From: an uncultured Gammaproteobacteria bacterium
Lineage (GTDB): Bacteria; Patescibacteriota; Patescibacteriia; UBA11705; DATKZF01
NCBI GenBank assembly: GCA_964411255.1
Contig: CAYPKD010000005.1
Location: forward strand, 5,547 to 69,546
DNA: 64,000 nucleotides
Direction of reading: 5' to 3'
In this document: positions 11,459 to 53,205 of the stretch, piece by piece
Numbering within the stretch: position 1 is the stretch's first letter
Layout: each line of letters starts with the position of its first letter
The notes under the pieces: model-generated
What the model was told of the DNA's origin: nothing
Database searches by the model: none
Seen by the model: only the letters and a program-made list of their open reading frames with translations
Made by a program: the position numbers and the translations under genes

Positions 11459-11462
11459 TCCT

Positions 11463-11490
11463 GAGGGCTTGTATAGCCCTTTTTTGTGTT
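11463..11490 (+). terminator. rho-independent terminator after trxA
   Basis: Hairpin agggcttgtatagccct followed by ttttttgtgtt. Confidence 0.7.
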
Positions 11491-11519
11491 GAAAATGTTT
11501 AATAATTCCCAATTTTCAT

Positions 11520-19974: not shown

Positions 19975-20012
19975 AAATATGGGATGTGAATAAAAGTGCA
20001 AAGCCTAGAACT

Positions 20013-20774
20013 ATGGATAACGTAAAACAAAAACTTATTGATTTTGGTTTGTTTGAGCAAGAAGCTGAGGCATATATTGAGTTATTAAAAAAAGGAGAAG
20101 CAAAGGCTGACGATTTAATTTATGGAACAAAAGACCATAATGATTTAATAGTGGCTTTGGATTCCTTAGCTGACCGGAATTTAATTAAAAAAATTGTTGG
20201 CAATGGCTCAGTTTATTATAAAGCAGAAGATCCGGAAAAAATTTTTAAAAATTTGAGTATAAAAAAAGCTCAGGCAGCTTCAAGCAAAGAAAAAATTGAT
20301 CAAGTAGTGGTAAATCTGGATTGGATTTATAATCAGACAGAACGGCCGACAATGGCAAATTCATATAGGGGATATCAAGGTCTTTTGGAAGCTAGAAAAA
20401 AAATTCTCAGCCAAAAATACGATAAAATTTATAATATTACTGCATTAAACAAATATCTTCCGAGAAATCATGTACAATCTTTGCTGAGTCAGGTGAAAAA
20501 TGGATTTTATGCAATTATTCCAAAATCAGATATTGAATATTTAGAAAAGATTAAAGATTTGATTGACAATGAACCAAAATTAAAGATTAAAATTATTGAA
20601 GATGATTTGTGGCAGGAAAAAATGGAAATTTTGATATTTGGAGATTGCGTATCATTTGGTAATAATGAAGATGAACAGCTTTATACAATGATTGAGGATA
20701 AAATCGTTGCGGTGGCAATGAAAAATATGTTTTTTAGCATTTGGAATGGTATTGAAGATGAATTTAAAAAGTAA
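20013..20774 (+). CDS. TrmB-like regulator paralog
   Basis: N-terminal LIDFGLFEQEAEAYIELLKKGEAKADDLI resembles the TrmB HTH. Tandem with the previous gene; start could also be TTG 19971. Confidence 0.45.
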   Translation: MDNVKQKLIDFGLFEQEAEAYIELLKKGEAKADDLIYGTKDHNDLIVALDSLADRNLIKKIVGNGSVYYKAEDPEKIFKNLSIKKAQAASSKEKIDQVVVNLDWIYNQTERPTMANSYRGYQGLLEARKKILSQKYDKIYNITALNKYLPRNHVQSLLSQVKNGFYAIIPKSDIEYLEKIKDLIDNEPKLKIKIIEDDLWQEKMEILIFGDCVSFGNNEDEQLYTMIEDKIVAVAMKNMFFSIWNGIEDEFKK

Positions 20775-21464: not shown

Positions 21465-23537
21465 TTAATCTTCTACTTGCTGAGTAATTACGCCCTTTTC
21501 TTTTCCTTCTTCATCAAATTCTAAATTTGTAGAAATCGGATTTAAGGATATTATCAATGAATCACCGGTAATTGAGTCTTTTGCTTCTAAGCTGGTGTTT
21601 TCAGTTAGCTTCATTAGTTTGCCAATGTCATCGTTAGTTGGTTCCAGACTGAGCTCAAAGTTTGTATGAGCTTCATTTACTGACTGAGGAAGCCTGTTAA
21701 TTTCCCAGGTTATTTGATTTGTATCAGAATTATAATTAATTTGCCCAGTCGTTATTTGTTCATTTCCTGACCAGCTTACTTTATCAGCCAGAGTAGCTTT
21801 TATTTTTACATCTGTTATTTCATGCAGATTATTTGAAATATCCCAGAAAATTTTATAGGTTGTCTTTTCATTTGCTTGCGGTGGAAGAGGACCAGAGCCG
21901 ATTTCATTCCCATCCTGATCATAATATAATGCTTTTATACCTAAAGCAATGTCTGTATTTAATTTGATTTCAATTGTCGAACTGTCAATTGTCGGCTCTT
22001 CTTCATTAATGGTTAATTGCAAATATAATTTTATGTTTTGCTCAGCTAAGCTTTCGTTTGAAAAGTCCTGCAAGGCAGCCAGTTTTTTTATTGGAATTGA
22101 AAATTCAATAACATTTTCTGAATAGGCATTTAAATTGCTTATATTCCAGCTTATTTGAGAGCCTTCTTCTGTATCCTCCAAATCACCGCCGCTCAGATCA
22201 CTGTTTTTCCAATCTAACACCTCTAACGGCCATTCAGTAATATTGGCAATTAGCCCGGCATCTTCAACATCCTGATCGCTTGTGTTTTTTATCACTGCAG
22301 TACAATTTATATTTTCACCATAGCTGGTATTACTATTTTCAGTTTTTCCATTTATTATTAAGTAAGCCAAAAGTTCTTGATCAGAAAGCTCTATAGTAAA
22401 TTGTTCTGATTTTTGGACAAAATTTTGGTCAAATTCTCCAGGATATAAAATTTGGAATTCAAATGGCTGATTTTTTTCAATTGTCGCTAAGTCAATGTCT
22501 TCGGAAAATATGCCTTCAACAGTTATTTCCTGTTCATTATTATCTGCTTTAATATTTTCAATTACCCATTCATTATTTTCAGATTTTGGCTGGCTTTGAA
22601 TAATTGAAAAATCAGCAGGAGATACTAATTTGATGATTAATTTTTCATAATCGATTTCTGTCGGGTTGCTATATGATAATGTCAAATTGAATTTTTGTCC
22701 TGGTATGGCATTTTGAGGATTAGTAATCAGTGCTTCAAGCTCAAGCGGCAAAACCTGGGTTGAATGCGTCTCTATTTTACTGAACTCAGAATTAAAATTT
22801 TCCGGGTTATAGGAAATAGTGGCATTAATTTTTTGAGTTGTGTCAACCTGTGTTATTAATTTACCTTTTATTTTTATTTGTCCAGATTCATTGATTTTAA
22901 TTTTATCAAAATTCCAGGTGCTATTTTCTGTTTCCGGAACTTGTTCAGTTAAGGAAAATCCTTTTGGCATTCTTACAAATAATTTAACATCTTTTAACGC
23001 CACCTGACCTTCATTTTCATAATTTATCAGATATGTGACCTCCTCGCCAATTTGGGTCTCGTCAGGTCCGATTATGCTAATTTTAATTTTATCCTCAGCA
23101 AACTGTTTTCTTTTATTAAAAACAATAAATCCAAATATACTGGCAGCAGCGATAATAAAAAGAAAAATAAGGGCTGATATTATAATAGTGCGTTTCCTCC
23201 TTTTTTGTCTTTTATCCATGATATGAGCCAGTATAGTTTCTTCTTCTTTCGCCTCTTTTTCAACATCTGAATTTGTCTGAAATAACTCTGCGGCCTGCTT
23301 ATATATAGAAGCAATTGATTCAGTATTTTTTGTTTTCTTTTTAAATAAGCTGAATTTACTTTTTTTCTTTTTTTGGGGTTTGTTTTTCTTCTGCTCTTTC
23401 TTCTTACCAGGTTTTTTCTCAGTTTTTTTATTAGTTATGGTTGTCTCTTTTTTTGAATCAGAATTTTTCTTTTCTTGATCAGAAAGATTTTTTTGTTCTG
23501 TATTTTTTTCTTCTTGGTTTGTGTTTTTATTTGACAT
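21465..23537 (-). CDS. membrane-anchored surface protein with Lys-rich cytoplasmic N-tail
   Basis: N-terminal K-rich tail, one TM helix, and a large repetitive extracytoplasmic region. No recognisable catalytic motifs. Confidence 0.5.
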   Translation of the reverse strand: MSNKNTNQEEKNTEQKNLSDQEKKNSDSKKETTITNKKTEKKPGKKKEQKKNKPQKKKKSKFSLFKKKTKNTESIASIYKQAAELFQTNSDVEKEAKEEETILAHIMDKRQKRRKRTIIISALIFLFIIAAASIFGFIVFNKRKQFAEDKIKISIIGPDETQIGEEVTYLINYENEGQVALKDVKLFVRMPKGFSLTEQVPETENSTWNFDKIKINESGQIKIKGKLITQVDTTQKINATISYNPENFNSEFSKIETHSTQVLPLELEALITNPQNAIPGQKFNLTLSYSNPTEIDYEKLIIKLVSPADFSIIQSQPKSENNEWVIENIKADNNEQEITVEGIFSEDIDLATIEKNQPFEFQILYPGEFDQNFVQKSEQFTIELSDQELLAYLIINGKTENSNTSYGENINCTAVIKNTSDQDVEDAGLIANITEWPLEVLDWKNSDLSGGDLEDTEEGSQISWNISNLNAYSENVIEFSIPIKKLAALQDFSNESLAEQNIKLYLQLTINEEEPTIDSSTIEIKLNTDIALGIKALYYDQDGNEIGSGPLPPQANEKTTYKIFWDISNNLHEITDVKIKATLADKVSWSGNEQITTGQINYNSDTNQITWEINRLPQSVNEAHTNFELSLEPTNDDIGKLMKLTENTSLEAKDSITGDSLIISLNPISTNLEFDEEGKEKGVITQQVED

Positions 23538-26070
23538 AATCTTTTAGTTCAAAAATTAATCCGATTAATTCATCAGTATTTAATACTGTTTGCCCCACAG
23601 CTTTATTTCTATCTTTAATTTTTGCATCTTCAGGATAGAGCCATTTTATTTTATAATTATCAGGCAGAATAATGTTTGTTTTCAAGTCAATATTTTGCAT
23701 TCCTGGCTGTTTTTGAATAAACAGAGAATAAAATTGTGAGGAATTATTATTGTCAAAAACTGAATCAATTAATTTTTCTAACCATGAATTATCTTCTGGC
23801 AAGCTCAATCGAAAAGGCAAGGCATATGAGAGTTCTATTGTGCTTTTTTCATTTATTGGTGTTTGTATCCAATTGGCAAAAACCGTTTTACCTGATTCAG
23901 TATAAATTTCTGTTTTTGAAAGAGGATGAACTGAAACTGGAGTGATTATTTTTGACAGGGTTTGATCAGGCATTGCATTATTTAAAGGTTGATAAAAATT
24001 TGCTTCCTTCATGCTAGAAAAACCAGTAGCCTTTATTAGCTGGCTGCCCTGTGGAACAAATATTTTTAAATATGAGGTATTGGTCATGTTTTCAAAAATA
24101 TCATCAGGATCGCCTTTGTGTTCTCTTTCTATTCGCAAATTATTTATAATAGTACCGTTTTCATCGATATTGGTTGTTAATTCAACTTTTTGATGCATCA
24201 CATGGCTGGTTTTTCCACCCATCATGTTTATATCAACAATTGCCAGATAATCTTTTGATGTTTGCTTGACCTCGCCAGCCCAATTATATTCAACCACCAT
24301 TTTTTGCAGTTCTGGGTCATTTAAATACATTAATATTTCTTTTTTGCTAAAGCTGGTATTTAAGGTTTTTAGGATATTCGTTAAAGTAGCATCCTTGGCA
24401 GAGAAAATTGATTCAAGAATTTGAGGCGTAATATCAGCAATGAACTGTTTTGGCTTATTTTCTTCCCGGTCATATTCCAATTCCACAGATTTTTGGGTTT
24501 CTTCAATAAAATTTTCTGCTGTAATAATTTTTCCATATTGAGCTGCTTCAATTGGCGGTATATGATCAAGCAGTTGCTCTATTAGGCTGGCATTTATTGC
24601 TATTATGCCATCAACAGTTGCACCGCCGGCTTTTTGAAAAAACCATTCTATTTTCTGGGCTGAAGTAGGGAAGTCAAAAAACCAGTTTGAATCCTGCATT
24701 TCCCATTTATTATTCACTAATAGCAAAGGCTGCGGCGGAATTAAGCTTTCATACAAAGTTCCCTGAAAATCATAAGTACCGCCGCCAGGAATTTCAATAT
24801 TTTTTATTTCTCCTTTGTAAAAATCAACTAAAGCGACACTGCCCATAAAACCGCCGGTTGGCCGAAGCTCCCGGTTGTTTTGGAAAATTATCAGATATCT
24901 TTTTTTCTTTTTATGACCCAATACTTCCATCATAAATTTAGTAAATGAATCCAGCGTGTGAAAATCAGAATTAAATTGATGGATTTGCGACTTGACCTGA
25001 ACGAATTGATCTGCAAATTCCTCTGGAATGGCATTGGGGCTTATTAGATTTATTTTTTCAGTTGATTGATCGACTAAAGGAAGCGCTTCCTGTATTTGTA
25101 TTTGAATGTATGAAATTTTGTCAGTAATTTTTGAATTATCATTATAAAAATAATTTAGGCTTTCACTGAATATTTGCCCTAAAAGTGAAATGTTTTCTCC
25201 GACTTCAAGCAAATTTTGGGCATCAGATAAAGTTTTTCCTTCATATGGAACTATTTTTAGTATTGGTTGAAGTAAACTGCTGATTTCATCCAGCTGATTT
25301 TTTGCATTGTCAAAATTTCTTTCTGCTTTATTAAAATGTTTTTGTGCTGATGAAGGATTTTTTTCTGAAATTGCAGAGCTGGCAATTTTTAAGTCGCTAT
25401 ATGCGTCTTTTGTCAAATCAAGGACCTTGTCTTTTGTTTGATTTAATTTATAAAAGTGGCTGAAAGCATGAATCGGCCCAGCTAATAGAAGACAAACAAT
25501 TATAAAAACCGTTAATGCCCTGGCCCAGCCAACGGGTAAGACAAAAAGTCTTGGTTTAGTATATTGGCATTTAATTTCTTCATCAGATAATTTTATTTTT
25601 TTAAAATATGTTTCATTAAATTCTGAATTTAAACTGTCTGATCCTTCATCTACAATCTCAGCCTTTTGGGAAAGATCGAGCAGGTGAGGTGATATTTTTG
25701 GTTTGGCCTTTTTATATGAGGATTTGTTGGCAGTGTTTTTATTTAATAAAAAAGCAATATCTGCTTCATCTGAAGCATTGCTTTTTAAAATATTATCTAA
25801 TTTATTTTTCGACTTAACACCTTTTTTTCTTTTTGGAACAGCTTTTACTTTCTTTCTGGCTTTTTTTGTTATTGAACTCTTTTTTTTAACAAATTTTTTC
25901 TTTGTCGTTTTGTTTTTTGATTTTGGTTTTGCTTTTTTTATAATTTTTTTCTTTGCAGCAACTCTAACAGCCTTCTTAGCTTTTTTGTTAGAAGTTTTTT
26001 TCCTCACCACCTTTTTTTTAATGGTTTTCTTTTTTGCAGGTTTTTTGATTTTTGTTTTCTTTATTGCCAT
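23527..26070 (-). CDS. DUF4012-like membrane protein with Lys/Arg-rich N-tail
   Basis: Basic N-terminal tail, a TM helix, and an RELRPTGGFMGS block reminiscent of DUF4012. It overlaps the downstream gene by 11 nt. Confidence 0.5.
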   Translation of the reverse strand: MAIKKTKIKKPAKKKTIKKKVVRKKTSNKKAKKAVRVAAKKKIIKKAKPKSKNKTTKKKFVKKKSSITKKARKKVKAVPKRKKGVKSKNKLDNILKSNASDEADIAFLLNKNTANKSSYKKAKPKISPHLLDLSQKAEIVDEGSDSLNSEFNETYFKKIKLSDEEIKCQYTKPRLFVLPVGWARALTVFIIVCLLLAGPIHAFSHFYKLNQTKDKVLDLTKDAYSDLKIASSAISEKNPSSAQKHFNKAERNFDNAKNQLDEISSLLQPILKIVPYEGKTLSDAQNLLEVGENISLLGQIFSESLNYFYNDNSKITDKISYIQIQIQEALPLVDQSTEKINLISPNAIPEEFADQFVQVKSQIHQFNSDFHTLDSFTKFMMEVLGHKKKKRYLIIFQNNRELRPTGGFMGSVALVDFYKGEIKNIEIPGGGTYDFQGTLYESLIPPQPLLLVNNKWEMQDSNWFFDFPTSAQKIEWFFQKAGGATVDGIIAINASLIEQLLDHIPPIEAAQYGKIITAENFIEETQKSVELEYDREENKPKQFIADITPQILESIFSAKDATLTNILKTLNTSFSKKEILMYLNDPELQKMVVEYNWAGEVKQTSKDYLAIVDINMMGGKTSHVMHQKVELTTNIDENGTIINNLRIEREHKGDPDDIFENMTNTSYLKIFVPQGSQLIKATGFSSMKEANFYQPLNNAMPDQTLSKIITPVSVHPLSKTEIYTESGKTVFANWIQTPINEKSTIELSYALPFRLSLPEDNSWLEKLIDSVFDNNNSSQFYSLFIQKQPGMQNIDLKTNIILPDNYKIKWLYPEDAKIKDRNKAVGQTVLNTDELIGLIFELKDYVK

Positions 26071-26094
26071 AATTTACTAGAAGATTGAAAATGG

Positions 26095-27213
26095 TTAATT
26101 CAGAAGAGAATTATATATTTGCAATGTCCTTTCCGCGCATTTTTGCCAGGAATATTTTTTTGTTTGCTCAAATCCTTTGTTAATCAGATTCTGTTTTTTA
26201 TTTTCATCTGAAATAACCTGATACATTTTATCAGCCATTTCATTTGGGTTTTTAGGATCAAAATATTCTGCTGCATTTCCTAATACTTCTGGCAGACTTG
26301 AGGTATTTGATGAAACTACTGGTGTGCCGCAAGCCATTGCTTCAATACCGATTAGGCCAAAGCCTTCAATAAAAGAAGGAATGACATAAATGTCTGCTGC
26401 ATTATAAAATACCGGTAAATCCTTATTAGAAATAAATCCTGGTCTAATAATATCTTTTTCTAAGCCAAGCTTTTCCCAGGTTTGGCGCACTTCAGGATAA
26501 TGAGGATCTTCATTGCCGCCAATAACCAGTTGATAGTCCAGATTATACTTGTTTTTCAAAACATGAAAAGCACGGATTAGGCCAGGTAGATTTTTATGAT
26601 TGCGCCAAACGCCAACATAAAAAATAAAAGGCTTGGATATCCCGTATTTTGCTTTTACTTTATTAATTATACCATAATCTTCTATAACCCGGAAGTCTGA
26701 TTTTACCCCCAAATAAGTCACAGTTATCTTTTTAGCTGGTACTTTAAAATACTTAATTACATCGTTTTTTGTACTTTCTGAAACAGTGATAACTTTTTTG
26801 GCCCGAGTGACTGAATTTTTAAAAACAAAACGAAATCCATGTCTTCTTACCCATGATGACATTCGATGACCTGGAAAATGATGTGGAGTGACATCATGAA
26901 TAGTGACAACTGATGGCTTAAAATAAAAAAATGGCGAATTAAAATGCGGATAATGAATAATATCAATTTCTTCCTTTAAAAATTGGAGTGGCAATAATAC
27001 TTGCTCAGCATAGCTATACCAGCGGGGAGTTACTTTTACTTTTGTTACATTTTCGTTAAAAACCTGAAATTCAGAAAATTGCGGTTCTCGCAAATACAAA
27101 ATATATTGATTATTCTTATCAATTTTAAAAAGATTGTCTGTTAGATTTTTAATATAATTGCCAATGCCAGTTTGGGCTGAGCCATACATTCTGGCATCGA
27201 TTCCTATTTTCAT
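26095..27213 (-). CDS. glycosyltransferase family 4 (GT-B)
   Basis: EGFGLIGIEAMACGTPVV motif and GT4 architecture. Confidence 0.85.
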   Translation of the reverse strand: MKIGIDARMYGSAQTGIGNYIKNLTDNLFKIDKNNQYILYLREPQFSEFQVFNENVTKVKVTPRWYSYAEQVLLPLQFLKEEIDIIHYPHFNSPFFYFKPSVVTIHDVTPHHFPGHRMSSWVRRHGFRFVFKNSVTRAKKVITVSESTKNDVIKYFKVPAKKITVTYLGVKSDFRVIEDYGIINKVKAKYGISKPFIFYVGVWRNHKNLPGLIRAFHVLKNKYNLDYQLVIGGNEDPHYPEVRQTWEKLGLEKDIIRPGFISNKDLPVFYNAADIYVIPSFIEGFGLIGIEAMACGTPVVSSNTSSLPEVLGNAAEYFDPKNPNEMADKMYQVISDENKKQNLINKGFEQTKKYSWQKCAERTLQIYNSLLN

Positions 27214-27420
27214 AAAATTATGAATAATTATAAATGAAATGAATGCTTATTTATTACAAATAATTATGAATTATCTATTACGAAACTACAAATCAACTAC
27301 ATAAACTACGAAAGCCAGGGTTTGTAACTGCGAAAGATAAATTATAGATTGATTTGTAAATTTATTGCTAGTATGTTAATTTTACCAAAAAGAGGATCTT
27401 TATAAAAGGAGAGTAGGAAA

Positions 27421-27753
27421 ATGAGACAGATGCCCTGGGAAAAAGTGAAAGGAAATTTGTTTTTTTTATTAAAACCTGATACTGAACCAACCTATGTTAT
27501 GAGAAATGGTGTACCAACAGCTATTATAATGGGCATTAATTATTTTAAACGATTAGAAATAGCCGAGGTGACAAGATTATCTTTGATAGAGTTGAGAGAA
27601 TATTTTAGCAAATGGTCGCAAAGATCATCAAAGGCAGCGATTGTATCTGTAAATAAAAAGGAAATGATGGCTATTATGGGAATTAATTTTTACAGGATGA
27701 AAACAAGAGCTTTTAAGGTAATAGATGGTGGAAAAAATAAAACTTCTGGATAA
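27421..27753 (+). CDS. Phd/YefM antitoxin-like protein with internal duplication
   Basis: The N-terminal half matches the Phd/YefM pattern (NL...RNGVPTAIIMGINYFKRLE). The second half repeats the motif (AAIVSVNKKEMMAIMGINFYRMK). RBS AAAGGAGAG. Confidence 0.4.
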   Translation: MRQMPWEKVKGNLFFLLKPDTEPTYVMRNGVPTAIIMGINYFKRLEIAEVTRLSLIELREYFSKWSQRSSKAAIVSVNKKEMMAIMGINFYRMKTRAFKVIDGGKNKTSG

Positions 27754-27767
27754 AATCTGGGAGTTTT

Positions 27768-28907
27768 TTATTCATTGATTGTTTTAAAAAAATTTTCTGC
27801 TGTTTGTTGCCAATTGAATTTTTGCACCTGGACAGATCCTTTGCCAATCAGATTTGCCCGTAAATTATTGTCACCTAAAATTTCTTTAATTGCCCAAAAA
27901 ATTTCATTAATATTATACGGATCAATAAACAGAGCTGTATTTTCGCAAATTTCAGTCAGTGATGAAGTGTGGCTGGTAATTACCGGTGTTCTGCAAGCCA
28001 TTGCTTCAAGTGGTGGAAATCCAAATCCTTCATAATATGAGGGATAGATAAAAATATCTGACAAATTATAAATATAAGGCTTGTCTTCAATGTCAATATA
28101 GCCTGGGAAAAAGATTTCGTTTTCCAATTTTAATGTTTGAATTAAATTAAATATTTCATTATATTTCCAGCCTTTGGCACCGGCGATTACCAGTTTATGG
28201 GGGAAATTTGTTTTTTTCTTTAATAATGCAAATGCTTCAACTAGTGACTCAATGTTTTTTCTTGGCTCAAGCGTGCCCAGGCTTAGAATAAATTTGTCAG
28301 GTAAATTGTATTTTTGTTTTATTTCTCCTTTTTTATCTTTTGAAAAATTAATATTTACACCAGAATAGACAACTTCTATTTTATTTGGATTAATATTATA
28401 TAAATCTATTAAATCGCGTTTAGTATTTTCTGAAACAGCAATTATTTTATGTGCATTTTTAAAAATTTGCCTGCAATCAATTGATTTATGCCAGATTCTT
28501 CTTTTTAAAGAATAAAAATATGGAAATATTTCAAAAGACAGATCATGGGCGGTTATAATATACTTTCCAATGGGTGATATTGATAAAAAGTTAATGTTTG
28601 GGAAAAAAAACATATCAACTTTTTTATTATATTTGGACAGAATCAGAGAGTCTAAAAAAGGACGTTCAAAAATCTTAATACAAGCATTTAATATTTTATT
28701 TGGGTAAGTAAATTCACACAAAGTTATATTATCCTGGCAGAGGCCGTTAATATGTTTCAGATAAGGTTCTCTTTTATTATAAAATAAAAAATATTGATTT
28801 TGAGAATCAATATTAAAAAGATATTTTAATAAATTAAAAGTATATTCGCCAACTCCAGTCAGTTTTTTTTCCATTAATGATCGAACATCAATGGCAATGT
28901 TTTTCAT
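27768..28907 (-). CDS. glycosyltransferase family 4
   Basis: EGFGFPPLEAMACRTPVITS motif. Confidence 0.85.
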   Translation of the reverse strand: MKNIAIDVRSLMEKKLTGVGEYTFNLLKYLFNIDSQNQYFLFYNKREPYLKHINGLCQDNITLCEFTYPNKILNACIKIFERPFLDSLILSKYNKKVDMFFFPNINFLSISPIGKYIITAHDLSFEIFPYFYSLKRRIWHKSIDCRQIFKNAHKIIAVSENTKRDLIDLYNINPNKIEVVYSGVNINFSKDKKGEIKQKYNLPDKFILSLGTLEPRKNIESLVEAFALLKKKTNFPHKLVIAGAKGWKYNEIFNLIQTLKLENEIFFPGYIDIEDKPYIYNLSDIFIYPSYYEGFGFPPLEAMACRTPVITSHTSSLTEICENTALFIDPYNINEIFWAIKEILGDNNLRANLIGKGSVQVQKFNWQQTAENFFKTINE

Positions 28908-28911
28908 ACTT

Positions 28912-30015
28912 TTATCTGCTAGAAATAAAATAGTTATCCTGTTTTATGACTTCTTTTATTTTTTTCTTAAATTGCTCAGTATCAAACTGCAGGGCATGAT
29001 TTCGGATCTGCTCTGAATCAAAATGAAATTTTTTAAAATGCAAAATTTGATAAGCTAAATCTTCCCAATTTTGCTCTTTGAAAAAAAGTCCGGTCTGGGC
29101 ATCAATAATTGTATCTAAAGCGCCGCCAGCCTGATAAGCTATAACTGGCCGGCCAGAGGCCATTGCTTCAACAGCAGTGATGCCAAAGTCTTCTTCCTGC
29201 GGATTAATAAACGCCTGGCAGCTGGCATAGAGTTCAGCTTTTTTAGCATCAGTTACATTTCCTAAAAATTCAACATTTTTCTTTGCCATTTTTTTTAATC
29301 TGCTGTAATCAGGACCAGTACCAAAAATTTTTAAGGGCATATTTAATCGATTAAAAGCCGTAACAGTTAAATCAAATCGTTTATAAGGCACAAGTCTGCC
29401 GCCAGTTAAAAAATAATTTTTCGGAGTATTATTTATATAAAATTTTGAGGTTTCAACTGGTGGATATATCACCAGGCTATCCTGTCCATAGTATTTTTTA
29501 ATTCTTTTTCTGACTGTATTTGAATTTGCAATAAACAAATCAACCCGGTCAGCTGCCAGTTTATCCCACATGCGCAGTTTGCTTAAAGCTAATGGCAGGA
29601 ATTTTTTTATCAATCGGTTTTGTTTCAGGTTTTCAACATAAGTCTGGCTGTCAGTCCAGAGGTAGCGGGTGGGAGTATGGCAATAGCAAATATGTTTTGT
29701 GTTTGGTTTGGTGATAATCCCTTTAGCAAAGGCTGAGGAGCTGGAAATTACAGTATCAAAATTTGATAAATCATAATTTTCAGTAGCTGCTGGCATCCAC
29801 AAAAGAAACCATTGGTATTTTCTAATGCCTAAGGGCAGTTTTTGCAAAAATGACGGATTAACCTGCTTTTCTTTCATGTCATCATTCATTTTTTTCTTAT
29901 CATAAACCAGGGTATATATTGGACTTTGCGGAAAAACATCATGTAAAGTACGCAAAACTTTTTCAGCTCCGCCTTCTTGGGTCAGGTGATCATGTACTAA
30001 TGCAATTTTTGCCAT
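28912..30015 (-). CDS. glycosyltransferase family 4
   Basis: ITAVEAMASGRPVIA motif; tandem with the previous GT. Confidence 0.85.
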   Translation of the reverse strand: MAKIALVHDHLTQEGGAEKVLRTLHDVFPQSPIYTLVYDKKKMNDDMKEKQVNPSFLQKLPLGIRKYQWFLLWMPAATENYDLSNFDTVISSSSAFAKGIITKPNTKHICYCHTPTRYLWTDSQTYVENLKQNRLIKKFLPLALSKLRMWDKLAADRVDLFIANSNTVRKRIKKYYGQDSLVIYPPVETSKFYINNTPKNYFLTGGRLVPYKRFDLTVTAFNRLNMPLKIFGTGPDYSRLKKMAKKNVEFLGNVTDAKKAELYASCQAFINPQEEDFGITAVEAMASGRPVIAYQAGGALDTIIDAQTGLFFKEQNWEDLAYQILHFKKFHFDSEQIRNHALQFDTEQFKKKIKEVIKQDNYFISSR

Positions 30016-38150: not shown

Positions 38151-38760
38151 TGATCCAAACAGGTCTATAAGCCGAATTCTGTCCCACCAGAGGCGGGGAT
38201 GATCATCTATCTAGTCCCGAGATTACTCTCGGGATCAAGCGAGCTACCAAACTTGCTCTTGCACCAGATAAGGTTTACCACCACCTAATGTTACCATTAG
38301 GCAAGAGAAGTATAAATTAAATAGTCACGTGAACCATTTAACTTTTTTCCTTCTCACTTTTCACCTTTCACCACTGCTACGCAGTGGAATTTCTAAATCC
38401 TAATTTTTTAAACTCTGAACAATTTTCAAATTTTCGAAAGGTTTTAAACATTAGAACATTTGAATTTCGAATTTGTTTAGAATTTCGTATTTCGAATTTA
38501 GCGCTTCCATTGCGCAACAATGGCTAGTATAGTCTCTGTGGCACTGGCTGTCGTCTAGGTTTATTAATTATCCTAGAATCGCCTGGGAGTTACCCAGTAT
38601 CATACCGCAGATTACGCTGATTAGCCGATTACGCAGATTGCAGGACTTTTTTTTATCAGCGTAATCAGCGTAATCTACGGTCAGGTGTTCGGACTTTCCT
38701 CCGGCCTACGCTTTTCACTTTGTTCAAAGCTTCGGCTGGCGATCATCCAACCTATTTGGA
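38151..38760 (-). ncRNA. rnpB: RNase P RNA (bacterial type A-like) with large insertions
   Basis: On the minus strand: GGAGGAAAGUCCGAACACC (P4 5' strand), CUGGGUAACUCCCAGG (P8-like), CCAGUGCCACAGAGAC, GGUGAAAGGUGAAAAGUGAGAAGG (P13/14-like), CUAGAUAGAUGAUCAUCC...GACAGAAUUCGGCUUAUAGACC (P4 3' strand, P2). The 5' and 3' ends pair as P1. Confidence 0.8.
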
Positions 38761-46629: not shown

Positions 46630-46769
46630 AAGTTTTTTGTAAGAAACGTCAAATGATATTTACATTATAATTGATAAGGACATATTTGTCAATCCCTGTG
46701 TTGTTAGAAAATTTTTTTGTACTCAGTTTCATTTTTCTATGCAGTAAAAAAATGCTATAATATAAATCA

Positions 46770-47465
46770 ATGAAAGAAGCTAATAAATTGTATAAAAACT
46801 GGTGGTTTAAGCCAACAATAGTTATTATTGGCATTCTTTTGATTATAATAATGATAAACGTAAAAGTCAATAGGCCATTTGAGGATTTTATAAAAAAAAT
46901 AAAACAGGCAGCAGTGCCAATTGAAAGCACTTATAATATGGATGAGATACGAACTGACAATGATCCGTATTTGGGGATTAAAGAAGCACCTGTTCAGATT
47001 GTGGAATTCGGAGATTTTAATTGTCCGTATTGCAAGGCTTCTGTATCAATAATGAGAGAAGTACTGCTAGAGTATGAAGATGAAGTTTTTTATCAGTTCA
47101 GAGATTTTCCAGTAGTATCTGAACAATCAATATTTTTGGCAATGGCAGGCAGCTGCGCTCATGAGCAAAATAAATTTTGGGCATTACATGATTTGCTCTT
47201 TCAAAGACAGGGAGAAATTAATGAACTCAATATTAATCAGTATGCGCAAAGCGTGGGCTTGAACACCAATCAGTTTAGTGAATGTATAAGTAGTGAAAAA
47301 TTTAAAAATGAAGCAATGGAAGATTTTTTAGCTGGAGATAAATTGCAGGTCAAGGGCACGCCAACATTTTTCGTTAATGGGAACAAATTCCAGGGCGTAC
47401 CAACAAAGGAAAATTTAAAAAGAATAATTGATCAGCTTATTTTAATAGAAGAAAAAAAACAATAG
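46770..47465 (+). CDS. DsbA-like thiol:disulfide oxidoreductase (membrane-anchored)
   Basis: TM anchor and FGDFNCPYCK CxxC thioredoxin-fold motif. Confidence 0.7.
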   Translation: MKEANKLYKNWWFKPTIVIIGILLIIIMINVKVNRPFEDFIKKIKQAAVPIESTYNMDEIRTDNDPYLGIKEAPVQIVEFGDFNCPYCKASVSIMREVLLEYEDEVFYQFRDFPVVSEQSIFLAMAGSCAHEQNKFWALHDLLFQRQGEINELNINQYAQSVGLNTNQFSECISSEKFKNEAMEDFLAGDKLQVKGTPTFFVNGNKFQGVPTKENLKRIIDQLILIEEKKQ

Positions 47466-47472
47466 TTTATAT

Positions 47473-48024
47473 ATGAAAGAAATAAGAATACATGGGCGAG
47501 GTGGTCAAGGCACAGTTACTGCAGCTGAACTTTTAGCAATGGCAATTTTTTTTGATGGCAAATATTCTCAAGCTTTTCCAAACTTTGGAGTAGAAAGAAG
47601 GGGTGCGCCTGTAGAATCATATGTTAGAATTGGCAAAAAGCCAATCAGGCTGCGTTCCCAGATTTATAAGCCAGACTTTTTAATCATTATGGATTTAAGT
47701 TTATTAGATTTGCAGCAGGTTTTAGCAGGTACAAATAAGGATACGATTGCGCTGGTTAATAGCGAGGTAAAACGAAAATTAAAGGGAATGAAATCGTATC
47801 ATATACCTGCCACTTCTGTTGCCCTAGAAGCGATTGGCAGTCCATTGCTTATCAATACGGCATTAATGGCAGCCTTTATTACAATAACTAAATTGGTTGA
47901 TTTTGATTCATTGATAAAGGCAGTACAAGAAAGATTTTTATATAAGGGAGAAGAAGTAGTTAAAAAAAATATTATTGCAATGAAAGTGGCGAAAAAATTT
48001 ATGGAAGAAGAATACAGCTTGTAA
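47473..48024 (+). CDS. porG: pyruvate/2-oxoacid:ferredoxin oxidoreductase gamma subunit
   Basis: MKEIRIHGRGGQGTVTAAELLA N-terminus typical of POR gamma. Confidence 0.85.
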   Translation: MKEIRIHGRGGQGTVTAAELLAMAIFFDGKYSQAFPNFGVERRGAPVESYVRIGKKPIRLRSQIYKPDFLIIMDLSLLDLQQVLAGTNKDTIALVNSEVKRKLKGMKSYHIPATSVALEAIGSPLLINTALMAAFITITKLVDFDSLIKAVQERFLYKGEEVVKKNIIAMKVAKKFMEEEYSL

Positions 48025-48034
48025 TAACAAAATT

Positions 48035-48313
48035 ATGAAAAAACCATTACATACCAAATCAGGTACAACCAAAGATAATAAAACAGGTTCATGGCGGACA
48101 TATGTGCCAGTTGTTGATCATGATAAATGCATTGCCTGCGGAATTTGCGCTCGCGTATGCCCTGAAGGATGTGTTTTTCCGGTGGGAGAAAGAGTGTTAC
48201 AGAAAAATGCTAAAATTTTTTATGAACATGACTTGGATTATTGCAAGGGCTGCGGAGTTTGCGTTGAAGAATGCCCGGTTAAGTGTATAAAAATGGTTAG
48301 AGAGGAAAAGTAA
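48035..48313 (+). CDS. porD: POR delta subunit (2x[4Fe-4S] ferredoxin)
   Basis: Two CxxCxxCxxxCP clusters. Confidence 0.85.
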   Translation: MKKPLHTKSGTTKDNKTGSWRTYVPVVDHDKCIACGICARVCPEGCVFPVGERVLQKNAKIFYEHDLDYCKGCGVCVEECPVKCIKMVREEK

Positions 48314-48436
48314 TTTAAATTTGAGAATAGTTATTTAGAAATCAGTATTAGAAATAAGATAATAAAAATAGTTTTTAAATACTAATTTCAAATTTCCATT
48401 TTCCATTACCAATTTTGATTTTCTATAAACTAATTT

Positions 48437-49539
48437 CTATGAGAAAAAACATTGAGGGATCAGAAGCAATAGCTGAGGTGGTTAAATTAATACAACCAGA
48501 AGTGGTAGCCACTTTTCCAATTACACCTCAGACTCATATAATAGAACATCTGGCTAAATATAAAGCAGATGGTGAGGTTGGTTTTGAATATATAAAAACT
48601 GAAAGTGAGTTTGCAGCAGCCTCAGTTGTTTTGGGTGCCAGCGCGATGGGGGTACGGGTATACACCGCTTCCAGCTCACAAGGATTGCTTTTAATGGGCG
48701 AGGTTTTATATGACATTGCTGGCATGAGATTGCCCGTGGTTATAACTGCAGCTAATAGGGCGATTTCCGCGCCATTAAATATTTGGAATGACCATCAGGA
48801 TGTAATGCCTTTTCGTGATGCTGGCTGGATAATGCTTTTTGCTGAGACTAATCAGGAGGCGATGGATCTGCATCTTTTGGCTTTCAAGTTGGCTGAAAAA
48901 TTATCGCTCCCAGCAATGGTTTGCATGGATGGTTTTGTCTTAACCCACACTTATGAGCCGGTTGACATTCCAAAGTTAAGCGAAGTTAAAAAGTTTTTAC
49001 CTAAATACAGGCCAAAGAAAAATACATATTTAGATGTGATTAATCCGGTTAGCCTGGGTTGTTTTGCCACCCCAGCTGATTATCAGGAAATAAGACTGGA
49101 ATTACATGAGGATTTATTAAAATCAAAAAATCTATTCATTCAGGAAGCAAAGAAATTTAAAAAGATTTTTAAACGGAATTTAAATATTATTGATTATTAC
49201 GGCCCAAAAAATGCAAAAACTGTAATTGTCGCGATGGGAGCAGCTTTAGGCACCATTAAAGAAGCTGCAGATCAGTTAAATGAAAAAGGATCAAAGGTGG
49301 GAGTATTAAAAATATCAATGCTGCGGCCTTTTCCAAAAATGGAAATAAAACATTTATTAAAAGATAAAAAAAACGTGATTGTTCTGGATCGGGCAATATC
49401 ACTGGGTTCTGGTGGTATATTATATAATGAGGTTAGAAATGCTTTATGCAATACCAATGCCAAGGTTAGCGGAGCAGTAAACGGCTTGGGTGGAAGGGAT
49501 ATTACAATTGATTTTATTAAAAAACTTATTGTAGCGTGA
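48437..49539 (+). CDS. porA: POR alpha subunit
   Basis: EGSEAIAEVVKLIQPEVVATFPITPQT N-terminus; start at ATG 48437. Confidence 0.85.
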
Positions 49540-49552
49540 TAATTTTGAGAAT

Positions 49553-49631
49553 TGGAGGTTACGGAATTACGGAAGGTTACTGATATTACGGATATCCGTA
49601 GTATCCGTAATAATCAGTAAATCCGTAATCC
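49553..49631. promoter_or_regulatory. palindromic array of TTACGGA / TCCGTAA repeats (operator-like)
   Basis: ggttacggaattacggaaggttactgatattacggatatccgtagtatccgtaataatcagtaaatccgtaatcc: three direct TTACGGA on the left and three TCCGTAA on the right, around a perfect 14-bp palindrome tacggatatccgta. Confidence 0.55.
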
Positions 49632-49640
49632 CTAATAAAT

Positions 49641-52118
49641 ATGAAAAAAATAATATTACTTACAATTCTTCTGGCATTAATTTGCACGTCTTTTTTAGTT
49701 GCTGCCAAGGTTAGTGCGTTTGAGCCTTTGGAAGAATTAATTCCAAGAATGAAAATCCCGATCCCGCAGCTTGAACCATTTCAAAAGCCTACTTATGTGG
49801 AAGAAGGAGGCAAGGGCTATATTTTCATTCCATGGATAGCCCAATATGTAAGTGCAATGTATAAATATGCTTTGGCTATTGGATCAATCATTGCTGTGAT
49901 TGCAGTTATGGTAGGAGGAATTTTATATTTAACCTCTGGCGGTGCGCCTGGCAGAATAGATCAGGGTAAAAATATTATTATTGGTGCTATTACCGGACTT
50001 TTAATTATAATTTTTTCTTATATCTTTTTAAATACAATTAATCCTGAACTGGTGAATCTTAAGGCTATTAGAATTCAAGCTGTAAAACAAGAAGCATTAG
50101 TGGTTGGAAATAATTGTAAGGATTTGGGAGCTGGATTTATAGTCAGAACTCCAAGCGGAGAAAAAGAAGGAACAACAGGTAATGCCCAGTATTTTGCATG
50201 CGGCAGTTCATATCCAGTAAGGTCAGGGGCAGCAGATGTGATTGTTCCCGAAGGTCAGAATTGCGATGGGGCGTATTGCCAAAAGGGTGCTTGCGAGACT
50301 GTTGATGGTAAACCACAGTGTGTGAATGCTTTGTTTACAGGAGAAATTACAGGAACGATGTTGTCCGGAGGAAGATATATTGATGAAGAATTTGAGCTTT
50401 GGGGCATGCCGGGAAATGGTCTTCTCGCAGCATTTCCAGTTCCATCTAAAGGACGATATGTTATTCCTTTAACAGCTGAATTAGAAAACAAACTAAATCT
50501 TGTAGACAAAGTGTATTTTCATCTACAGATAAATACCACAGGTGCTTATCCTTATTGGGCCTATAAAATTGGAAAGGAAGGAGTTGTTGATGTGGATTTG
50601 ATAAAAGAAACGGTAAAAAGTTATTTTAAAACTACAATAGATAGTGAATTTTATGCAGTAAAAAGTTATAAGGATCCAGAAAAAGCAATATGGGGATTCC
50701 CATACTCTCTAGATCAGATGTCCCCACTCAATCCTAGTTATGGTAATACCCCTTGTGATCCATGTTTTGTGATGCCTAGGAACGCTGAATGGCGATTTGA
50801 ACAGAGATTGCCTTGGTGTCAATTTTGGGAACCGACTGATCTTTTAGTAGCAGCAAAAAGTGGATCTGGAACAGTTGTAAATTTTAATATTGATGATTTT
50901 CCAGAATATCCTCAGTGGCCTCCACCGGTTCTAGTAAAAGAACTTCTATTAGATAATATTTCTGGATTACCTACGCCTGAATTTTTAAAGGGTGTTAAAT
51001 ACGAAGATATAGATTGGAATAATTTGGCTACAATCAATCCAGATTTATATCCTTATATGACTGATCCTGCTGAATTTTGTGTGGCTTCGAGTCAGTTAAC
51101 ATCTGCCTCTCCATTTCCTGGGACTCCATGTACTAGTCCGTTTGAGACAGCATTTGTTGCAGCTGATGATGCGAATGCGCCAGATGATTTAAAGGGGAAA
51201 ACATTATATTGTCGGCCTGCTGGTTATCAAGTCGGTTCAGGCACAGCAGTAGCAAAGTTTGAATGGACATTGGAAGATGCTAGGAAAGGAGATACGTGTG
51301 ATAATTTAAGTGTTGCTCAGAGTTTTCCAGGACAATTTTCAGCTGGACAAACAGCAAAAAACGATGGACAGCCATTTGTTAATTGTGAATCTGGCGTTAG
51401 TTGCCAATGGGTTAGCGGTGATGTAGGAGAATGTATAAATGGTTTAACATATTGTTTTGGGTTTTGTGAAGATGATGAAGCAGTATTGTCTATGGGAATT
51501 GGAGATCCATGCAGAGATGGCACCTGCCTTCCATATAAAGGATCAATAGAATTAAAATGCGTTTTAAATGGAAATGCCAGGGAATGTTTATTAGGCACAT
51601 GGGGATCATTTTGCAATACTGATAACGACTGTAAAGACGGTTTTGAATGTATTAAGCATGACACTACAACTACTGATGAAGTTCAATTTTGTGCAAAAAA
51701 GAATGCAGGAAGATGGCAGGCATGTGGAGATAAAATTAGCGGTAGTGGTACGAATTGTTCTTCTGGATTGGATTGTGAGCAAGTAGAATACGGAGAAGAA
51801 GGTGATAGTGACGCACAGTGTGATACAGGCCATTGGTCTGGAGCAGATACTAATAATTTGAAATTTTGTCTTGAAAGTACTTATGATGATAATAATCATG
51901 GGATCTGCTCCTGTTCAAATAATAGTAATTGTGCCAATACTTATGGTTGGGATTCTGGTGCAAATTATTGTAATTTAGCAGGTTATGAATATTGTTCTCA
52001 AAAAGTTGAAGGCGCATGGTGTAAAGTAGAGGGAAAAACAACACCAGACAATTATTTTTGCCATGGTGTAGGAGGTGAGTATGGAGTTTTACATCAAAAG
52101 ATTTCAACTAGTCAATAA
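49641..52118 (+). CDS. large Cys-rich secreted/membrane-anchored protein inserted in the por operon
   Basis: Signal peptide, then two hydrophobic helices separated by a short Gly-rich loop, then a roughly 680-aa domain with dozens of Cys. No catalytic motifs recognised. Confidence 0.55.
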   Translation: MKKIILLTILLALICTSFLVAAKVSAFEPLEELIPRMKIPIPQLEPFQKPTYVEEGGKGYIFIPWIAQYVSAMYKYALAIGSIIAVIAVMVGGILYLTSGGAPGRIDQGKNIIIGAITGLLIIIFSYIFLNTINPELVNLKAIRIQAVKQEALVVGNNCKDLGAGFIVRTPSGEKEGTTGNAQYFACGSSYPVRSGAADVIVPEGQNCDGAYCQKGACETVDGKPQCVNALFTGEITGTMLSGGRYIDEEFELWGMPGNGLLAAFPVPSKGRYVIPLTAELENKLNLVDKVYFHLQINTTGAYPYWAYKIGKEGVVDVDLIKETVKSYFKTTIDSEFYAVKSYKDPEKAIWGFPYSLDQMSPLNPSYGNTPCDPCFVMPRNAEWRFEQRLPWCQFWEPTDLLVAAKSGSGTVVNFNIDDFPEYPQWPPPVLVKELLLDNISGLPTPEFLKGVKYEDIDWNNLATINPDLYPYMTDPAEFCVASSQLTSASPFPGTPCTSPFETAFVAADDANAPDDLKGKTLYCRPAGYQVGSGTAVAKFEWTLEDARKGDTCDNLSVAQSFPGQFSAGQTAKNDGQPFVNCESGVSCQWVSGDVGECINGLTYCFGFCEDDEAVLSMGIGDPCRDGTCLPYKGSIELKCVLNGNARECLLGTWGSFCNTDNDCKDGFECIKHDTTTTDEVQFCAKKNAGRWQACGDKISGSGTNCSSGLDCEQVEYGEEGDSDAQCDTGHWSGADTNNLKFCLESTYDDNNHGICSCSNNSNCANTYGWDSGANYCNLAGYEYCSQKVEGAWCKVEGKTTPDNYFCHGVGGEYGVLHQKISTSQ

Positions 52119-52124
52119 ATTTCT

Positions 52125-53039
52125 ATGCCAATAAAAAATAAATACCACACACCATATCAGCATTTAATAAATCCAGGACACACAGCCTGCTCTGGGTGTG
52201 GTTTGATTGTGGCAATGATTAATATTTTAGATGCGCTAGGTCCGAACACGATTGTTGCCAATGCCACTGGCTGCAGCGAGGTGACGACCAGCAAATATCC
52301 TCAGACTGCTTTTAAGGTGCCGTGGATCCATTCTATTTTTGAAAATACAGTGGCAGTGGCTGCAGGTATTGAAGCTGTGCTCAGAAAACAAGGAAAGGAC
52401 GATAATATAAATGTATTAGCCTGGGGCGGAGATGGCGCTATGTTTGATATTGGCCTTGGGTTTATGTCAGCCTCCTGGGAAAGAGAAGAAAATATTTTAA
52501 CAGTTTGTCTGGACAATGAAGCTTATATGAATACTGGAATTCAATCTAGCAGTGCCACACCAATAGATGCATATACCATGACCACTCCATCTGGAAGGAA
52601 ATCATGCGGTAAAAAATTAACTAAAAAAGATATGATAAAAGTGGCATTGGCTCATGATGTTCCCTATGTGGCTACAGCAACAATTGGAGATTTAGTTGAT
52701 TTATCTAATAAAATTAAAAAAGCATCCAAGGTTAAGGGGCCGAAGTACATTCAGGTTTTGACTACTTGTATTCCCGGCTGGAATGTTGAATCACATCTGA
52801 CAATTAAATTAGCCAGGCTTGCTCAGCAGACTGGCATTTATCCGGTTTTAGAATATGAGAAGGGCAAATTGATTTCTGCTAAAAAAGTAACAAAGGACAG
52901 GCCAAAAGTTGAAGAATATTTGAAACCGCAGGGAAGGTATAAACATTTGTTTAGCAAAAGCGGCAAGTGCAGAGGAGGAGTTGATATTATTCAAAAGCTG
53001 GCTGATGAGAATATTGAGAAATTCGGACTTCTCAAATAA
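52125..53039 (+). CDS. porB: POR beta subunit (TPP-binding)
   Basis: CSGCGL...GGDG TPP-binding blocks; starts 7 nt after the previous stop. Confidence 0.85.
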   Translation: MPIKNKYHTPYQHLINPGHTACSGCGLIVAMINILDALGPNTIVANATGCSEVTTSKYPQTAFKVPWIHSIFENTVAVAAGIEAVLRKQGKDDNINVLAWGGDGAMFDIGLGFMSASWEREENILTVCLDNEAYMNTGIQSSSATPIDAYTMTTPSGRKSCGKKLTKKDMIKVALAHDVPYVATATIGDLVDLSNKIKKASKVKGPKYIQVLTTCIPGWNVESHLTIKLARLAQQTGIYPVLEYEKGKLISAKKVTKDRPKVEEYLKPQGRYKHLFSKSGKCRGGVDIIQKLADENIEKFGLLK

Positions 53040-53205
53040 CAAATCATTTTTTTGGTGGTCGTTGGTTGTTAGGCATGGCAGCCAGTATGATTTTTTGTTG
53101 TTAGTCATTAGACTTTCTAACCAATGACCTAGGCCCATAGACCAAACTGGCAGTCAAGACTTAAAACTAATTACCTAAAATAAATTTTTTTAAATTTACT
53201 AATTT

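Follow-up and report, generated by a model that had tools for sequence, protein, structure and literature searches.

A conserved gene for a predicted pilin-anchored, cysteine-rich surface protein between porA and porB in Patescibacteria

Introduction

Proteins of the Pfam family PF18895 (T4SS_pilin) in bacteria of the Candidate Phyla Radiation (CPR) have been treated as VirB2-like pilins of type IV secretion systems (T4SS), and are often encoded in variable arrays near virB4 (10.1101/2025.01.22.634366). TraN of the F plasmid is a T4SS-associated, adhesin-like protein with 20 conserved cysteines, the folding of which requires DsbA and a co-encoded thioredoxin-fold enzyme (PMC7555446). Here we describe a gene, designated X, in a 64,000-nucleotide stretch of CPR DNA (contig CAYPKD010000005.1, positions 5,547 to 69,546; hereafter the window). 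It encodes an 825 amino acid (aa) protein with a pilin-like anchor and a cysteine-rich ectodomain, and is located between the genes for the alpha (porA) and beta (porB) subunits of pyruvate:ferredoxin oxidoreductase (POR), in a gene cluster headed by dsbA.

Much of bacterial diversity belongs to the Patescibacteria (CPR). Those few that have been cultured live as epibionts on other microbes, as the remainder are presumed to do, while the molecules by which they recognise their hosts are, to our knowledge, almost unknown. Our confidence is high for the anatomy and synteny of X and moderate for its function, where our preferred reading is a surface adhesin or host-contact protein, folded by DsbA, that diverges quickly and is expressed along with POR.

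Results and discussion

Anatomy of X and its pilin-like anchor

The open reading frame (ORF) of X is divided as follows:

49641-52118, +: X, 825 aa, ATG start, stop codon TAA at 52116-52118
49641-49718, +: signal peptide, aa 1-26 (MKK...AAKVSA, followed by FEP), from hydropathy and an AxA-type site
49719-49847, +: short, predicted extracellular N-terminal segment ending in I-P-W-[IL]-[AS]-x-Y, from an alignment of nine homologues
49848-50045, +: VirB2-like two-helix hairpin (transmembrane helix 70-97, loop TSGGAPGRIDQGKN, transmembrane helix 111-131), then N-P-E-L, from the PF18895 match and hydropathy
50046-52115, +: ectodomain, 690 aa, acidic (pI 4.5), 38 cysteines, hypervariable between species except for the cysteine scaffold

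Kyte-Doolittle analysis identified only three hydrophobic segments in X (residues 1-26, 70-97 and 111-131), with no averaged hydropathy value above 0.85 beyond residue 140. The two helices of the hairpin are connected by TSGGAPGRIDQGKN, which carries a net charge of +1, and by hydropathy X thus displays the arrangement of a pilin, namely a signal peptide followed by two helices with a short, positively charged loop. AlphaFold2 (AF2) places helices at residues 64-97 and 105-132, at low confidence. Residues 70-132 match PF18895 (E-value: 1.9e-5) with a bitscore of 25.1, which just misses the cut-off of 26.6, while all six full-length homologues match the family (best E-value: 2.9e-7). The hairpin is furthermore homologous to that of protein P0003 (E-value: 8e-8 in a search of 5.8e9 proteins), which passes PF18895 at 38.6 bits, and the paralogous hairpin modules of loci L103, L111, L120 and L130 pass the cut-off at 27-30 bits. 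The first-pass annotation, made from the sequence alone, had described an exported, cysteine-rich protein held by two helices reminiscent of VirB2/TrbC-type pilins, and both the predicted topology, with 39 cysteines in total, and the homology of the anchor to PF18895 members agree with that description. A lipoprotein reading of X was rejected, as there is no lipobox and Cys15 is not conserved among the homologues.

Two short motifs delimit the hairpin. The I-P-W-[IL]-[AS]-x-Y motif before the first helix (49827-49847) is invariant in the nine aligned homologues, while N-P-[ED]-L directly follows the second helix (50040-50051) and shows few variants, such as NPNL. The latter motif is also present in the hydrolase fusions P0003 and P0004, in both of which the IPW motif is replaced. 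In other Patescibacteria the hairpin module is fused to NlpC/P60 (P0003), Amidase_2 (L105), Peptidase_M15_4 (L121), SLT (L103), glucosaminidase-like (L120) and metallophosphatase (L100) domains, and several of these fusions pass the PF18895 cut-off. As the hairpin also tethers amidase, M15 peptidase, SLT, NlpC/P60 and metallophosphatase domains, it behaves as a generic anchor that holds large extracellular domains to the membrane, or possibly as a T4SS-docking element.

X may alternatively be a working component of a T4SS pilus, that is, a minor or tip pilin with its hairpin in a conjugation-type pilus that displays the cysteine-rich domain, an explanation which we regard as possible although doubtful. 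It would be consistent with the PF18895 homology, with the weak match of one family member to the NCBIfam Mbov_0395 pilin-like conjugal transfer protein (E-value: 0.0046), and with the two or three pilin-hairpin genes found in and after the por operon of L126, L107 and L122. VirB2-like pilins are moreover widespread in Patescibacteria, often as variable arrays, and essential in one case (10.1101/2025.01.22.634366). Against this stands the use of the same hairpin to anchor the enzymatic domains listed above, as does the size of X, which at 825 aa, 690 of which follow the hairpin, is about 7 times the length of a pilin. No T4SS ATPase or channel genes (VirB4, VirB6, VirD4) were detected among the Pfam-scanned ORFs of the 64-kb window, nor was such a gene found in the 20-kb loci of the relatives, and a hidden Markov model (HMM) of the module identified no further pilin-like module in the window. 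As X shows neither the small size nor the T4SS context that define a pilin, we class it as a fusion protein with a pilin domain rather than as a pilin proper.

A conserved cysteine scaffold in a variable ectodomain

All but one of the 39 cysteines of X are situated in the ectodomain, which is most cysteine-dense between residues 553 and 807 (26 cysteines in 255 residues). Read from the sequence, the C-terminal third consists of short modules that contain motifs such as C-x3-[DN]-x-C-x2-G-x2-C. The number of ectodomain cysteines is even in 25 of 26 non-redundant proteins, including 17/17 of those embedded in por operons, and 37 of the 38 are kept between X and its closest relative, P0002. Among six homologues, cysteines account for 27 of the 44 invariant ectodomain columns, although they make up 5.5% of the residues, while almost no ectodomain residue other than cysteine and glycine is invariant.

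The first-pass annotation had proposed Pfam searches and structure prediction as checks on this domain. Profile searches of the six homologues against Pfam, NCBIfam and PDB sequences yielded nothing apart from T4SS_pilin. An AF2 model of residues 140-425, built from six sequences, is β-rich, with a predicted local distance difference test (pLDDT) value of 72.5 and a predicted template modelling score (pTM) of 0.64, while a model of the whole protein from a two-sequence alignment (pLDDT: 32.7) was unusable. Foldseek comparison of the residue 140-425 model gave no significant match in PDB or BFVD; the top 40 PDB matches all belong to the transthyretin family (prealbumin fold) and are weak (E-value: about 0.05-0.25; template modelling (TM) score: about 0.33). 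By HMMER, residues 178-245 align with the SdrD_B/SpaA prealbumin-like repeats of the surface protein P0014 (E-value: 4.7e-5, library-wide). These two weak and independent hints agree, and offer a lead that part of the ectodomain may form a β-sandwich resembling those of adhesin stalks.

It is improbable, in our view, that X acts not by binding but as an extracellular enzyme or toxin with an unrecognised fold, for example on a host envelope. Catalytic domains (Amidase_2, Peptidase_M15_4, SLT, glucosaminidase-like, NlpC/P60 and Metallophos) are indeed found on paralogues that share the anchor, but the above searches of six homologues recovered no catalytic family, and the near lack of invariant residues besides cysteine and glycine is unlike a conserved active site.

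Contrasting rates of divergence within one operon

Relative to the locus of P0002, DNA identity is 85-89% in porA and 83-89% over codons 1-135 of X, falls to 50-65% in the ectodomain, and rises again at porB, with 77% in the bin spanning the X-porB junction and 82-88% over most of the aligned 5′ part of porB. Nei-Gojobori estimates of nonsynonymous (dN) and synonymous (dS) divergence from the same relative are:

porA: dN 0.036, dS 1.2, aa identity 92%
porB: dN 0.015, dS 1.0, aa identity 94-99%
X anchor, aa 27-135: dN 0.02
X, aa 233-825: dN 0.67, dS about 1.5, aa identity 36%

The anchor of X (dN 0.02) therefore matches the por genes in conservation, while nonsynonymous change in the ectodomain is about 20-40 times faster than in the flanks, with the cysteine scaffold kept. 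In more distant relatives, porA identity decreases from 79% to 72% to 54%, and that of X lies near 39-27%.

A diversity-generating retroelement (DGR), cassette switching or a similar dedicated mechanism of diversification was considered in view of the very high divergence between species and of an Avd-like four-helix-bundle gene (PF05635/PF22296) directly upstream of the homologue in L087-L089. The latter gene was seen in the lineage of one relative only (that of P0012), and no reverse transcriptase is encoded in the 22-kb loci. Furthermore, X lacks internal repeats, the window contains no template-repeat-like copy of any part of X, and the divergence spans the whole 600-aa ectodomain and not a short variable region. 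The X protein (P0001) is also identical on 9 contigs, as is the exact P0012 sequence on another 9. Given that neither repeats, template-like copies nor a reverse transcriptase were found, this mechanism was rejected, and we consider it largely refuted.

Conservation of X between porA and porB

Relatives were gathered by protein searches, exhaustive HMMER comparison, synteny, and an N-terminal motif scan of metagenomes. A word-indexed search of 5.8e9 proteins returned one full-length homologue (P0002; 46% identity) and two hairpin-only proteins, while the same type of search with a three-sequence profile added nothing new and missed a known homologue. Exhaustive HMMER comparison of the ectodomain against 1.84e9 cluster representatives retrieved P0002, P0011, P0012 and P0013 only, the genes for which are each located between porA and porB.

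A porB-based scan of species-representative genomes identified 76 loci with porA upstream, and in 75 of these, from archaea, Omnitrophota, Proteobacteria and others, porA and porB are separated by 18-383 bp. The sole exception, L005, has a 2.4-kb gap which holds an X homologue of 810 aa (27% identity), in the gene order observed in the window (SBP-secG-dsbA-porGDA-X-porB-uvrA), except that uvrA is preceded by an additional gene, for an M48 peptidase. This locus (CAZSER010000001.1) is labelled as 'uncultured Gammaproteobacteria bacterium'; because its gene order and its UvrA, 69% identical to that of the window, match a Patescibacteria locus, it has probably been mislabelled or misbinned. The host of the window is itself assigned to Patescibacteria (CPR), with Candidatus Falkowbacteria as the nearest named relatives; the best named UvrA matches are to Patescibacteria, Parcubacteria and Candidatus Falkowbacteria, at 69-81% identity. 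Three loci chosen through UvrA alone (L092, L093 and L094; 81%, 71% and 72% UvrA identity) have the order dsbA-porG-porD-porA-X-porB, with the X position occupied by proteins of 777, 783 and 715 aa. These share the signal peptide, the IPW motif, the hairpin, NP[EDN]L (NPNL in one) and 35-70 cysteines, while one of the ectodomains is no longer recognisably homologous.

Scanning metagenomes for the N-terminal module with its IPW motif returned 39 loci; pooled with those found before, they fall into 37 clusters at an identity threshold of 80%:

21/37 clusters: pilin-module gene between porA and porB, or flanked by them on a truncated contig
2/37 clusters: pilin-module gene immediately 3′ of porB, a second pilin-hairpin gene separating porA from porB
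8/37 clusters: no por; pilin-module gene next to or near dsbA (dsbA-X-uvrA in L111 and L119; truncated X-uvrA in L120)
6/37 clusters: pilin-module gene with neither por nor dsbA

Across the 21 por-linked clusters, porA identity extends from 92% down to about 50%. X is as such a fixed feature of the clade and not a recent one-off insertion, and the earlier description of it as inserted between porA and porB, which suggests a local oddity, needs correction. An assembly artefact, which had also been envisaged, is contradicted by the identical protein on 9 contigs and by the recurrence of the arrangement in many unrelated assemblies. The comparison of por synteny suggested in the first-pass annotation thus goes half way to the refutation set out there, in that the position is shared by relatives while the gene has no known function. 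No account of a pilin-anchored, cysteine-rich gene within a por operon turned up in the literature, although coverage was incomplete and novelty is unproven.

More than one pilin-hairpin gene is present in some por operons. Two occur in tandem between porA and porB in the more distant por operon of L126 (797-2816), while L107 (2736-3812 and 4710-5897) and L122 (2863-3882 and 4761-5942) each have one between porA and porB and another directly after porB. These could be viewed as small arrays, by analogy with the VirB2-like arrays of CPR.

DsbA as the consistent partner of X

The first gene of the por cluster in the window encodes a DsbA-like protein with an N-terminal membrane helix and a CPYC active site at residue 85. 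This more informative neighbour at the operon head (46770-47465 by Pfam) had been missed in the earlier reading of the locus. Among the metagenome loci, 28 reach far enough upstream to be informative, and 22 of these have a dsbA homologue ahead of the pilin-anchored gene and on its strand. In the por-less loci L111, L119, L124 and L130-133, dsbA is directly followed by the pilin-anchored gene, with uvrA next in L111 and L119, an order most simply explained if POR was lost while dsbA and X were kept. Because relatives without por keep dsbA-X(-uvrA), DsbA and not POR is the consistent partner of X. The linked dsbA, the even cysteine counts, the retention of cysteines between X and P0002, and the predominance of cysteine among the invariant columns together point to an ectodomain that would be fully disulfide-bonded and folded by the operon's own DsbA. 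X has the features expected of a DsbA substrate, namely a predicted extracytoplasmic location, an even number of conserved cysteines and a genomically linked dsbA. Cytoplasmic thioredoxin and thioredoxin reductase genes are also present in the window (11135-12509, +).

A functional tie to POR, with X tethering the enzyme to the membrane, regulating it, or acting as its redox or electron-transfer partner, would account for its position, for the tight junctions with its neighbours and for the retention of this arrangement across 21 lineage clusters, in which porA identity falls to about 50%, and X is rich in cysteines. We nevertheless judge such a tie to be very improbable. Only about 14 residues of X would face the cytoplasm, where POR works, and the ectodomain is predicted to be extracellular and is hypervariable, in contrast to the highly conserved POR subunits. 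The even, DsbA-linked cysteine counts furthermore point to disulfides and not to Fe-S ligands, por-less relatives retain dsbA and X, and 75 of the 76 POR operons examined elsewhere function without such a gene.

Organization of the dsbA-por-X operon

The genes and signals surrounding X in the window are:

46753-46761, +: candidate operon promoter TGCTATAAT, extended -10-like, 8 nt 5′ of the dsbA ATG, read by eye
46770-47465, +: dsbA-like thiol:disulfide oxidoreductase gene, first in the operon (Pfam Thioredoxin_4, E-value: 9e-31; DSBA, E-value: 9e-20)
47473-48024, +: porG, POR gamma subunit (Pfam POR, E-value: 5.7e-39)
48035-48313, +: porD, POR delta subunit, 2x[4Fe-4S] ferredoxin-like (Pfam Fer4 families)
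48439-49539, +: porA, POR alpha subunit, 366 aa (Pfam POR_N, E-value: 2.8e-70; PFOR_II, E-value: 1.4e-31)
49551-49636, strand not assigned: 86-nt imperfect palindrome with TTACGGA/TCCGTAA heptamers in the porA-X spacer, a lineage-specific structured insert
52125-53039, +: porB, POR beta subunit, thiamine pyrophosphate-binding (Pfam TPP_enzyme_C, E-value: 2e-18)
53061-53096, +: terminator-like hairpin with T-run, 22 nt 3′ of porB, from a consensus scan
53315, start: uvrA

The porA start is that of the gene caller (ATG at 48439; gene call in L004), while the mechanical ORF begins at a TTG at 48415. All four porGDAB subunit genes are present, yet the adjacency of the alpha and beta genes is broken, as these lie 2.6 kb apart. 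Pfam thus supports the gamma-delta-alpha order, with beta split off by the 825-aa ORF, reported in the first-pass annotation. The X-porB junction is tight, as noted there, with a 6-nt spacer that separates the stop codon ending at 52118 from the porB ATG at 52125. In most lineages X is preceded by 0-30 nt and followed by 2-14 nt. A consensus scan detected no promoter-like or terminator-like sites in the porA-X spacer, the sole terminator-like site being located 3′ of porB. Given these tight junctions, the lack of such sites in the spacer and the hairpin after porB, dsbA-porG-porD-porA-X-porB probably forms one transcription unit ending at 53061-53096, and the co-transcription of X with the por genes, which had previously been asserted outright, is plausible.

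The TGCTATAAT element before dsbA is not among the sites listed by the consensus promoter scan, which demands a -35 hexamer, and is a candidate promoter that would produce a near-leaderless mRNA. A Shine-Dalgarno-like motif precedes 11 of 42 gene starts in the window, most starts being AT-rich (e.g. AATAAAT-ATG). Together with the placement of TGCTATAAT right before dsbA, the paucity of these motifs suggests leaderless or Shine-Dalgarno-independent initiation. A hairpin that would bring a distant GGAGG near the X start was also considered, and was dropped in view of these counts and of the AT-rich context of X, which is typical for the window.

A lineage-specific palindrome in the porA-X spacer

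Five of the seven exact copies of the heptamers in the 64-kb window are found within the 86-nt palindrome. Its RNA fold has a predicted energy of -39.2 kcal/mol (z = -5.9), with none of 200 shuffled sequences as stable, and both strands fold equally well (-39.2/-38.6 kcal/mol). The palindrome is limited to the window and, in diverged form, the P0002 locus, where the porA-X spacers measure 101 and 112 nt, respectively, against the 0-30 nt of most lineages. No Rfam family matched it, apart from chance miRNA-like hairpin matches, and no copy was found in viral contigs. The palindrome previously noted upstream of X is thus real, while its proposed role as an operator array was rejected, in that the spacer contains no promoter-like site and most orthologous spacers lack the palindrome.

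A few other expanded spacers were observed at this junction. That of L090 (133 nt) has no significant structure, while that of L088 (421 nt) contains a 23S_rRNA_IVP/bAvd-like ORF flanked by inverted repeats. In the P0012 lineage (L087/L088, 9604-9972; L089, 1271-1639) this ORF is a 122-aa four-helix-bundle gene (PF05635 23S_rRNA_IVP/PF22296 bAvd), flanked by the inverted repeats CTTGTAGGTTGTAGGTGGC ... GCCACCTAATCAGCTAACAAG, the heptamers of which resemble those of the palindrome in the closest relative of the window. Strongly folding palindromic inserts unrelated to these occur at the porA-X junction of L106 (4672-4814; 143 nt; -51 kcal/mol) and L096 (3524-3582). Small palindromic elements seem to accumulate at this junction, and the palindrome of the window may be an ORF-less derivative, similar to a miniature inverted-repeat transposable element, of an element of the P0012-lineage type.

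Proposed function and placement of X

Under the adhesin or host-contact reading, X would be exported through Sec and its signal peptide cleaved. The VirB2/TrbC-type helical hairpin would then hold the protein in the membrane with both ends outside and the 14-residue loop inside, while the membrane-anchored DsbA encoded in the operon would oxidatively fold the 690-aa ectodomain into about 19 disulfides. The result would be a disulfide-braced scaffold, the loops of which diverge very fast between species, a pattern to be expected of an adhesin, of a protein that recognises hosts or partners, or of one under pressure from phages or antagonists. Transcribed within dsbA-porG-porD-porA-X-porB, X would therefore be made whenever the fermentative cell expresses POR, and as it rides in this operon its expression is probably constitutive. 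No functional dependence of X on POR is indicated. Given that the operon carries a fast-evolving, disulfide-rich, pilin-anchored surface protein together with a disulfide-forming enzyme, X is more likely a cell-contact than a metabolic protein, and an adhesin or host-contact role is hypothesised by analogy.

Several observations weigh against this reading. The fold hints for the ectodomain are below significance and it contains no recognised binding domain, so that the term adhesin is used by analogy. Relaxed constraint between the cysteines would look the same as positive selection, and we make no claim of the latter, since dS is saturated (about 1.5) and the ectodomain omega is about 0.44. 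The identity of P0001 across its 9 contigs gives no sign of hypervariation within a population, and, as the same holds for P0012, the variation of X is one between species. No DsbB or VKOR partner was detected among the window ORFs scanned, and the DsbA-like protein of L093 (589-1299; L125 lineage) has CQVS (CxxS) in place of CxxC, in a lineage whose X homologue contains 68-70 cysteines. Finally, the model does not explain the strict retention of X between porA and porB.

With respect to this last point, we put forward, as a rather doubtful proposal, that the placement itself is functional and selected, in one of two versions. The nearly invariant, essential porA and porB flanks may serve as anchors for homologous recombination, by means of which naturally transformable Patescibacteria would swap host-specificity alleles, with the conserved N-terminal anchor of X as an internal crossover point, in parallel to the flanks of capsule and O-antigen loci. 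Alternatively, embedding may hard-wire synthesis of the host-contact protein to the central pyruvate-fermenting operon. Were either version true, X would be the main host-range determinant of the clade.

The conserved position is the most interesting point raised by this locus, since it is unusual in operon evolution for a membrane-protein gene to stay lodged between the genes for two subunits of a central enzyme, alpha and beta, in relatives as distant as about 50% in porA identity. The adhesin or host-contact reading would further make the locus a clade-wide candidate for host recognition, in that it encodes a single-copy, DsbA-linked protein whose pilin-like anchor is conserved while its ectodomain diverges fast.

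Other features of the window

Beyond the operon, the window holds ordinary housekeeping genes and a cell-surface glycosylation cluster (21465-30015, -), which encodes a DUF11 protein (690 aa), a DUF4012 protein (847 aa) and three GT4 glycosyltransferases, with TrmB-family regulators upstream at 19216-20774. The RNase P RNA (Rfam RF00010; 139.6 bits; 38152-38758, -) is 607 nt long against a model of 367 positions, and thus contains large insertions.

Comparison with known systems

The VirB2/TrbC-like pilins of Patescibacteria (PF18895) share with X a signal peptide, two hydrophobic helices, a short basic loop and a restriction to CPR, and the copies within CPR arrays are likewise highly variable (10.1101/2025.01.22.634366). 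They are about 100-150 aa in length, however, whereas X has 825 aa with a 690-aa cysteine-rich C-terminal ectodomain, and X is located in a por operon and not next to virB4, in a window without T4SS genes. The pilin-hairpin-anchored peptidoglycan hydrolases (P0003, L105, L121 and L103) contain the same hairpin module (homologous at an E-value of 1e-8 or better), and several also adjoin dsbA. They differ from X in having recognisable enzyme domains and fewer cysteines (9-23 in total, against 35-70), and in their location outside por operons. The CPR 'T4SS pilin' hairpin is as such a modular anchor for cysteine-rich proteins and cell-wall hydrolases, which matters when 'pilin' matches are counted in genome surveys.

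The adhesin stalks with SdrD_B, SpaA and Cna-B domains bear a weak likeness to residues 178-245 of X, and the best PDB matches of the AF2 model fall within the transthyretin family. The Foldseek E-values are nonetheless at least 0.047, with TM scores of about 0.33, and X has no Pfam match to these domains; it also lacks a sortase signal and would be braced by disulfides and not by isopeptide or Ca2+ sites. In surface proteins of the Giardia VSP/CRP170 type the cysteines are conserved and the intervening sequence varies. These are eukaryotic proteins with CXXC motifs that are switched among many paralogues per genome, whereas the window has one copy of X, and its variation is seen from species to species and not inside a population.

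TraN shows no sequence similarity to X, and is an outer-membrane protein of diderms, whereas X would be anchored by its pilin-like hairpin in a presumed monoderm CPR cell, with a putative role in mating or host contact. F-like TraN, together with TraH and TraU, nevertheless provides the closest functional analogy, in that a cysteine-rich contact protein is paired, as X would be with its operon-encoded DsbA, with its own disulfide catalyst, the thioredoxin-fold TrbB/TraF.

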